The notes under the pieces were generated by a model. That model searched no databases, was not told the origin of the DNA, and worked only from the letters and a program-made list of their open reading frames with translations. A DNA stretch of 64,000 bases from Escherichia coli. GTDB taxonomy: Bacteria; Pseudomonadota; Gammaproteobacteria; Enterobacterales; Enterobacteriaceae. Positions within the stretch are counted from its first letter, which is position 1, and every line of letters begins with the position of its first letter. The DNA lies in NCBI RefSeq assembly GCF_965641715.1, contig NZ_OZ282453.1, one strand, 5' to 3'. A program made the translations under genes and the position numbers. This document shows positions 14,536 through 15,443 of this stretch, piece after piece.

Positions 14536-15366
14536 CTACGCGGAGCGAGACGCTGTCGCCCCTGCGCGTGGTGGCAGAGCAAATGCCACCAGCGCCGGGA
14601 TGAGATAAATAAACCAGACGGCGACTTCGCTGACGCTCGGCGCTTCCTGATAGCCAAAAATCCCTTCCATCAACGTGCCAAACAGCGAGTGAGTTGAGAG
14701 CACCTCGCTCATATCAAAGGCGATTTCCTGAAAGTGGTTCCACAATCCGGCTTCATGAAATGCGCGAATGGCACCTGCAGCCAGCCCTGCGGCGACGAAG
14801 AGAATAAACAGGCTGGTCCATTTAAAAAATGCACCAAGATTGAGGCGAATACCGCCCCAGTAGAGCAGGAAGCCGAGCACCACGGCAGTAGCAAGACCGA
14901 GCATTGCACCCAGCGGCGGCCAGATCCCGACATCTTGTTGAAATGCCGCCAGCAGGAAAAAGACCGACTCCAGGCCTTCCCTTGCAACGGCAAAAAAGAC
15001 CATCATCACCAGCGCCCAGCCATGATGATTTCCACGCTGCAATGCGCTATCGACTGCCTGTTCCAGTTGCACTTTGACGTTGCGCGACACTTTGCGCATC
15101 CAGAAAACCATCCAGGTAAGGATCACCACGGCGATCACCGCCACGATACCTTCAAACAGTTCCTGCTCTTTTTGCGGAAATTCGCCGGTGGTTTCGTTAA
15201 TGAAGATACCCAAGCCCAGGCACAACGCAGCGGCAAGCAACACGCCAATCCACATCACACCAATCCATCGGCCTCGCTGGGTACGCTTAAGATAGCTGGC
15301 AATCAAACTGACAATCAGCGCGGCTTCAAGTCCTTCGCGCAACATAATGAGAAACGGAACAAACAT
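14536..15366 (-). CDS. efeU: EfeU, ferrous-iron permease (FTR1 family), intact reading frame
   Basis: Uninterrupted ORF with two REGLE motifs; start placed at MFVPF (276 aa); K-12 carries a frameshifted efeU (from memory). Confidence 0.9.
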   Translation of the reverse strand: MFVPFLIMLREGLEAALIVSLIASYLKRTQRGRWIGVMWIGVLLAAALCLGLGIFINETTGEFPQKEQELFEGIVAVIAVVILTWMVFWMRKVSRNVKVQLEQAVDSALQRGNHHGWALVMMVFFAVAREGLESVFFLLAAFQQDVGIWPPLGAMLGLATAVVLGFLLYWGGIRLNLGAFFKWTSLFILFVAAGLAAGAIRAFHEAGLWNHFQEIAFDMSEVLSTHSLFGTLMEGIFGYQEAPSVSEVAVWFIYLIPALVAFALPPRAGATASRSA

Positions 15367-15424
15367 GCCACCCACCCTTAAACGTTTTTCTGAGTCAATC
15401 TATGCAAAGAAAAGTAAATCGCAG

Positions 15425-15443
15425 TGATAGCGATTATCATTAC
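15425..15443. promoter_or_regulatory. candidate Fur box upstream of efeU
   Basis: tgatagcgattatcattac; reverse complement gtaatgataatcgctatca resembles the Fur consensus GATAATGATAATCATTATC. Confidence 0.5.

Follow-up and report, generated by a model that had tools for sequence, protein, structure and literature searches.

Taken jointly, the evidence makes it very probable that the window (the whole 64,000-nt stretch of Escherichia coli DNA analysed here) carries an ordinary intact efeUOB operon at positions 12074–15444 on the minus strand, which by homology encodes a ferrous iron importer that is repressed by Fur and probably also by CpxR. An intact efeU and a Fur-controlled efeUOB operon are already known and belong to the textbook iron biology of E. 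coli (Grosse 2006; Cao 2007). An earlier note on this DNA had described an uninterrupted efeU frame with a Fur-box-like sequence upstream, had contrasted it with the frameshifted gene of K-12 and had suggested a functional EfeUOB transporter.

The efeU coding sequence lies at 14536–15366 (minus strand). As the note had claimed, its frame of 276 codons is uninterrupted: it starts with an ATG at 15366, runs without internal stop codon or frameshift, and its stop codon ends at 14536. The mechanical listing of open reading frames starts the gene three codons further upstream, at a GTG, which results in 279 amino acids; the ATG start and the length of 831 nt are those of the RefSeq annotation of the same efeU gene in other E. 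coli. Directly upstream, the purine-rich sequence AAGGGTGGGTGG (15368–15379, minus strand) is the likely ribosome-binding site as read from the sequence. The interval 14536–15443, in which the gene and its Fur box had been placed, does contain efeU, but it left the strand unstated and cut off the last base of the Fur box, at 15444.

The protein can be assigned to the inner-membrane iron permeases of the FTR1 family. EfeU matched the Pfam family FTR1 over profile positions 1–283 of 284 (E=1.9e-89; 300.2 bits, cutoff 25.3), and it also scored above the cutoffs of the NCBIfam EfeU equivalog NF041756 (331.8 bits, cutoff 255) and of TIGR00145 (351.8 bits, cutoff 303.8). With a regular expression applied to the translation, we detected two REGLE motifs of the RExxE type, at residues 10–14 (15325–15339, minus strand) and at residues 129–133 (14968–14982, minus strand). 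Such motifs are said to have a role in iron translocation, both from the work of Grosse in 2006 and from yeast Ftr1p. A Kyte-Doolittle scan of EfeU revealed six clear hydrophobic segments. A seventh segment at about residues 117–140, which holds the second REGLE motif, fell below the threshold of the script and was assigned by visual inspection; the method is crude. With this seventh helix assigned by eye, EfeU would be a seven-helix permease of the FTR1/Ftr1p type with two RExxE motifs. Its translation is identical to the efeU product WP_000497953.1 annotated in strain 2018-05-2CC.

The two partner genes follow efeU in the same orientation and are likewise intact, with gaps of 57 nt between the efeU stop codon and efeO and of 5 nt between efeO and efeB. 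The efeO gene (13351–14478, minus strand) encodes a periplasmic protein of 375 amino acids with a cupredoxin-like domain and an imelysin (M75) domain (Pfam Cupredoxin_1 and Peptidase_M75), and its product scored 772.5 bits against the NCBIfam EfeO model, far above the equivalog cutoff. The efeB gene (12074–13345, minus strand) encodes a DyP-type haem peroxidase/deferrochelatase of 423 amino acids (Pfam Dyp_perox_N and Dyp_perox_C), which scored 617 bits against NCBIfam TIGR01412, again far above the equivalog cutoff, and whose translation carries the N-terminal twin-arginine signal SRRRLLK. When aligning EfeO from the window, O157:H7 and K-12, all columns but one were invariant, and EfeB shares 99% identity with the proteins of both strains. 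From position 1 to 24000, with pgaABCD, phoH, efeBOU, putP and putA, the window is colinear with E. coli chromosomes. The best identity over these 24 kb among 5426 complete E. coli genomes was 98.9% (strain A30, from a baboon). The source lineage is thus not closely represented among these genomes and may be a Shigella or an E. coli lineage that has been sampled too little.

The record of K-12 MG1655 (NC_000913.3) marks efeU (b4490) as a pseudogene. To locate the lesion, we took 1.06 kb of the window in the orientation of the gene and aligned it with the K-12 sequence and the complete genome that matched best. The gene of K-12 has about 99% nucleotide identity to that of the window, and the sole indel in the alignment is at column 303, where one G of the GG in GGATTGGTGTG is missing from K-12. 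In the window, this GG is located at 15260–15261 (minus strand), in the codon of Gly36 (nucleotides 106–107 of the coding sequence). As both Gs are present, the frame stays open, whereas the K-12 frame reads RWIV followed by a stop and ends at codon 37. The K-12 frameshift, which the earlier note had named, is thus confirmed by the pseudogene flag, the 1-bp deletion and the stop at codon 37. The alignment with K-12, which had been proposed as a check, finds the window free both of this deletion and of any other frame-breaking lesion. Other inactivating lesions, such as a nonsense mutation, a frameshift or a truncated efeO or efeB, are ruled out by the intact full-length frames and the alignments. 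In K-12, the frameshift makes the transporter non-functional (PMC2808357).

To estimate how frequent the two alleles are, we queried the 5426 complete genomes with sequences of 47 and 48 nt centred on the deletion site, where the 28-nt word requirement of megablast separates the alleles. The efeU locus is present in 5416 of the genomes. The deletion allele was found in 367 genomes, and the site is intact in at least 3928; in the other genomes, a SNP close to the site presumably disrupts the 28-nt word. Among the carriers of the deletion that were listed, most are K-12 or laboratory strains (MG1655, W3110, BW25113, DH1, NEB10-beta, HB101, MC4100 and similar), and we thus reject the idea that the deletion is a common natural polymorphism. 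An intact efeU is the norm of the species, from which K-12 departs through a lesion specific to its lineage. It follows that intactness does not set this genome apart: the contrast that the earlier note had drawn with K-12 was right about the intact frame and needs correcting in emphasis only.

When comparing the window to characterised systems, we find close agreement. The EfeUOB (YcdNOB) systems of E. coli Nissle 1917 and O157:H7 were reportedly characterised by Grosse et al. in 2006 and Cao et al. in 2007. They share with the window the gene order efeU-efeO-efeB and the position between putP and phoH. EfeU of an O157:H7 genome is identical to that of the window at 275 of 276 residues, and the sole difference, in a conservative context, is at residue 221, which is A in O157:H7 and E in the window and lies outside both REGLE motifs. 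EfeO and EfeB of O157:H7 are 99–100% identical to the window proteins, and we observed no other notable difference. EfeUOB of O157:H7 is functional according to Cao 2007, as cited in PMC3852070 and PMC4746246. Taken with the intact frames, this near-identity supports the suggestion of a functional EfeUOB transporter, where function itself is predicted from homology. The likeness to yeast Ftr1p/Fet3p is at the level of the family only: EfeU shares the Pfam family FTR1, the two RExxE motifs and a cupredoxin-type partner with the yeast system, whereas the partners in the window are the periplasmic EfeO and a DyP peroxidase and the yeast partner is a multicopper oxidase.

Upstream of efeU, we found a candidate operator for Fur. 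The sequence CGTAATGATAATCGCTATC on the gene strand (15426–15444, minus strand) matches the 19-bp Fur consensus GATAATGATAATCATTATC at 15 of 19 positions, and 59 nt separate it from the efeU ATG, which agrees with the Fur-box-like sequence that had been placed about 60 bp upstream. Fur-dependent repression of ycdNOB has reportedly been observed by McHugh in 2003 and by Cao in 2007. A simple scan of 14400–16600 for the sigma-70 consensus detected no efeU promoter between 15366 and 15560. By eye, GATAAT within the Fur box is a candidate -10 element, and a weak TTGTAT precedes it by 16 nt.

Between the Fur box and the ATG, we further observed a direct repeat that resembles a CpxR box, GCAAA-N5-GTAAA (GCAAAGAAAAGTAAA, 15404–15418, plus strand), with one mismatch to GTAAA-N5-GTAAA. 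This pattern is not enriched in the window, where 10 matches compare with 5.1 ± 2.3 expected. As the pattern thus occurs at chance frequency, we keep the box only as an annotation that is guided by the literature, in which efeU is reported to be repressed by CpxR (PMC3852070; PMC9600279).

The same region contains further sequence features. An inverted repeat, AATCGC-N7-GCGATT (15417–15435, minus strand), with a T-rich run after it, was flagged as terminator-like by a scan. The repeat shares bases with the promoter-proximal half of the Fur box and borders directly on the CpxR-like box; rather than a terminator, it is probably an element of the operator or a palindromic flank of the Fur box. 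An open reading frame of 88 amino acids that starts with GTG (15378–15644, minus strand) overlaps the efeU promoter, the Fur box and the 5' region. In some RefSeq genomes, a 'hypothetical protein' is listed where this region matches, but the frame is most likely a spurious call. A scan of 11000–20000 with Rfam detected no RNA family, thus giving no riboswitch or small RNA as an explanation for the efeU 5' region.

Further upstream, the window departs from K-12. About 130 bp upstream of the efeU ATG are common to the window, K-12 and O157:H7, and the homology to K-12 then stops at about 15494. The interval from there to putP holds 413 unrelated bp in K-12 and about 2.5 kb in the window (approximately 15495–18037). 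As the sequence upstream of about 15495 differs from K-12, distal regulation could differ as well. An alignment of the four strains (window, K-12, O157:H7 and 2018-05-2CC, a Vietnamese commensal isolate) showed that the core efeU promoter region is left unchanged by this replacement. Between the efeU promoter and the next gene is a spacer of about 1.1 kb (15600–16400), where the GC content is 29–34% compared to about 52% in the flanks. We found no convincing open reading frame in this spacer, nor any Rfam family. It resembles DNA acquired by horizontal transfer and is a candidate for H-NS binding.

The gene that follows, between efeU and putP, is a hypothetical open reading frame of 442 amino acids (16561–17889, plus strand) that is absent from K-12. 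Searches of Pfam, NCBIfam and PADLOC found no match for it, and none of the PDB sequences gave a meaningful one (best E-value 0.46). The only family matches were to the PHROG families 11707 and 10109, whose function is unassigned. By eye, the protein contains three internal repeats of about 57 amino acids (KLTVDDMRKWAA..., KFTLEHIRQWAA... and TFTFGDIVQWAN...). O157:H7 (WP_001247490.1) and 2018-05-2CC have the same arrangement as the window, and the open reading frame is annotated there as 'hypothetical protein'.

Could the Fur box be a chance match in AT-rich DNA that has no role as an operator? The candidate does have four mismatches to the 19-bp consensus. It is, however, the sole site in 64 kb, on both strands, that matches the consensus at 15 or more of 19 positions, where 100 dinucleotide-preserving shuffles gave a mean of 0.29 such sites per window, which corresponds to about 0.001 expected sites per upstream region of 200 bp. 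Furthermore, the box and the whole stretch from it to the ATG, including the CpxR-like box, are identical in all four strains, whereas the bases directly 5' of the box vary among them. Both efeU and efeO also belong to the Fur-2 iModulon in a study of multiple E. coli strains (PMC10164565). We thus consider a chance match very unlikely. Another reading accepts that efeU is intact but holds that this strain does not express the system or has an inactive form of it, either due to the glutamate at residue 221, where O157:H7 has an alanine, or because the AT-rich DNA upstream of about 15495 silences the promoter, for instance via H-NS. The 2.5-kb replacement with its stretch of low GC content would fit such silencing, as would the lack of a sigma-70 promoter in the consensus scan. 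Yet O157:H7, whose EfeUOB is reported as functional in PMC3852070, shares this upstream arrangement together with the hypothetical gene and differs from the window by a single base from about -130 to the ATG. The protein with E221 is moreover a standard RefSeq EfeU, and the residue is not part of the REGLE motifs. A silent system is therefore very unlikely in our view. We give similarly little credence to the related idea that the segment of about 2.5 kb alters the regulation of efeUOB in this and in O157-type lineages, for instance by H-NS silencing or read-through. If this were true, the same intact operon would be expressed under conditions unlike those in strains with the K-12-type junction.

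In the intact and functional operon that we favour, the FTR1-type inner-membrane permease EfeU, the periplasmic EfeO and the Tat-exported DyP peroxidase EfeB would together import ferrous iron under aerobic, acidic and low-iron conditions, by homology with the systems of Nissle 1917 and O157:H7. When iron is plentiful, Fe2+-Fur would bind at 15426–15444 and repress the operon; at higher pH, CpxR would probably bind the GCAAA-N5-GTAAA repeat at 15404–15418, again resulting in repression. For this strain, we infer transport, the occupancy of both sites and the position of the promoter from the DNA. Aerobic acidic ferrous import by EfeUOB and its repression by Fur and by CpxR are summarised in PMC3852070 and PMC4746246. 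The chemistry of EfeUOB is debated, and direct transport of Fe2+, oxidation-coupled transport of Fe3+ and extraction of iron from haem by EfeB have all been put forward (PMC3852070). The operon could be functional but have a physiological role other than ferrous import: EfeO or EfeB might oxidise Fe2+ such that Fe3+ passes through EfeU, or EfeB might extract iron from haem. Both proposals appear in the review PMC3852070 (Rajasekaran 2010; Letoffe 2009), and the cupredoxin-like domain of EfeO and the DyP peroxidase domains of EfeB are present in the window. The sequence does not discriminate between these chemistries. A role other than ferrous import would refine the mechanism and leave the finding of an intact operon unchallenged; we regard it as possible, if on the doubtful side. 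In yeast, Fet3p and Ftr1p transport Fe3+ coupled to oxidation.

The allele counts (deletion in 367 and intact site in at least 3928 of 5426 genomes) show that the efeU pseudogene of K-12 is nearly peculiar to the laboratory lineage. Judging from its genes, the strain analysed here probably has a route for the uptake of ferrous iron at acidic pH that K-12 lacks. Apart from mainly serving correct annotation, the intact efeUOB operon is thus relevant when conclusions on wild or pathogenic strains are drawn from the iron physiology of K-12.
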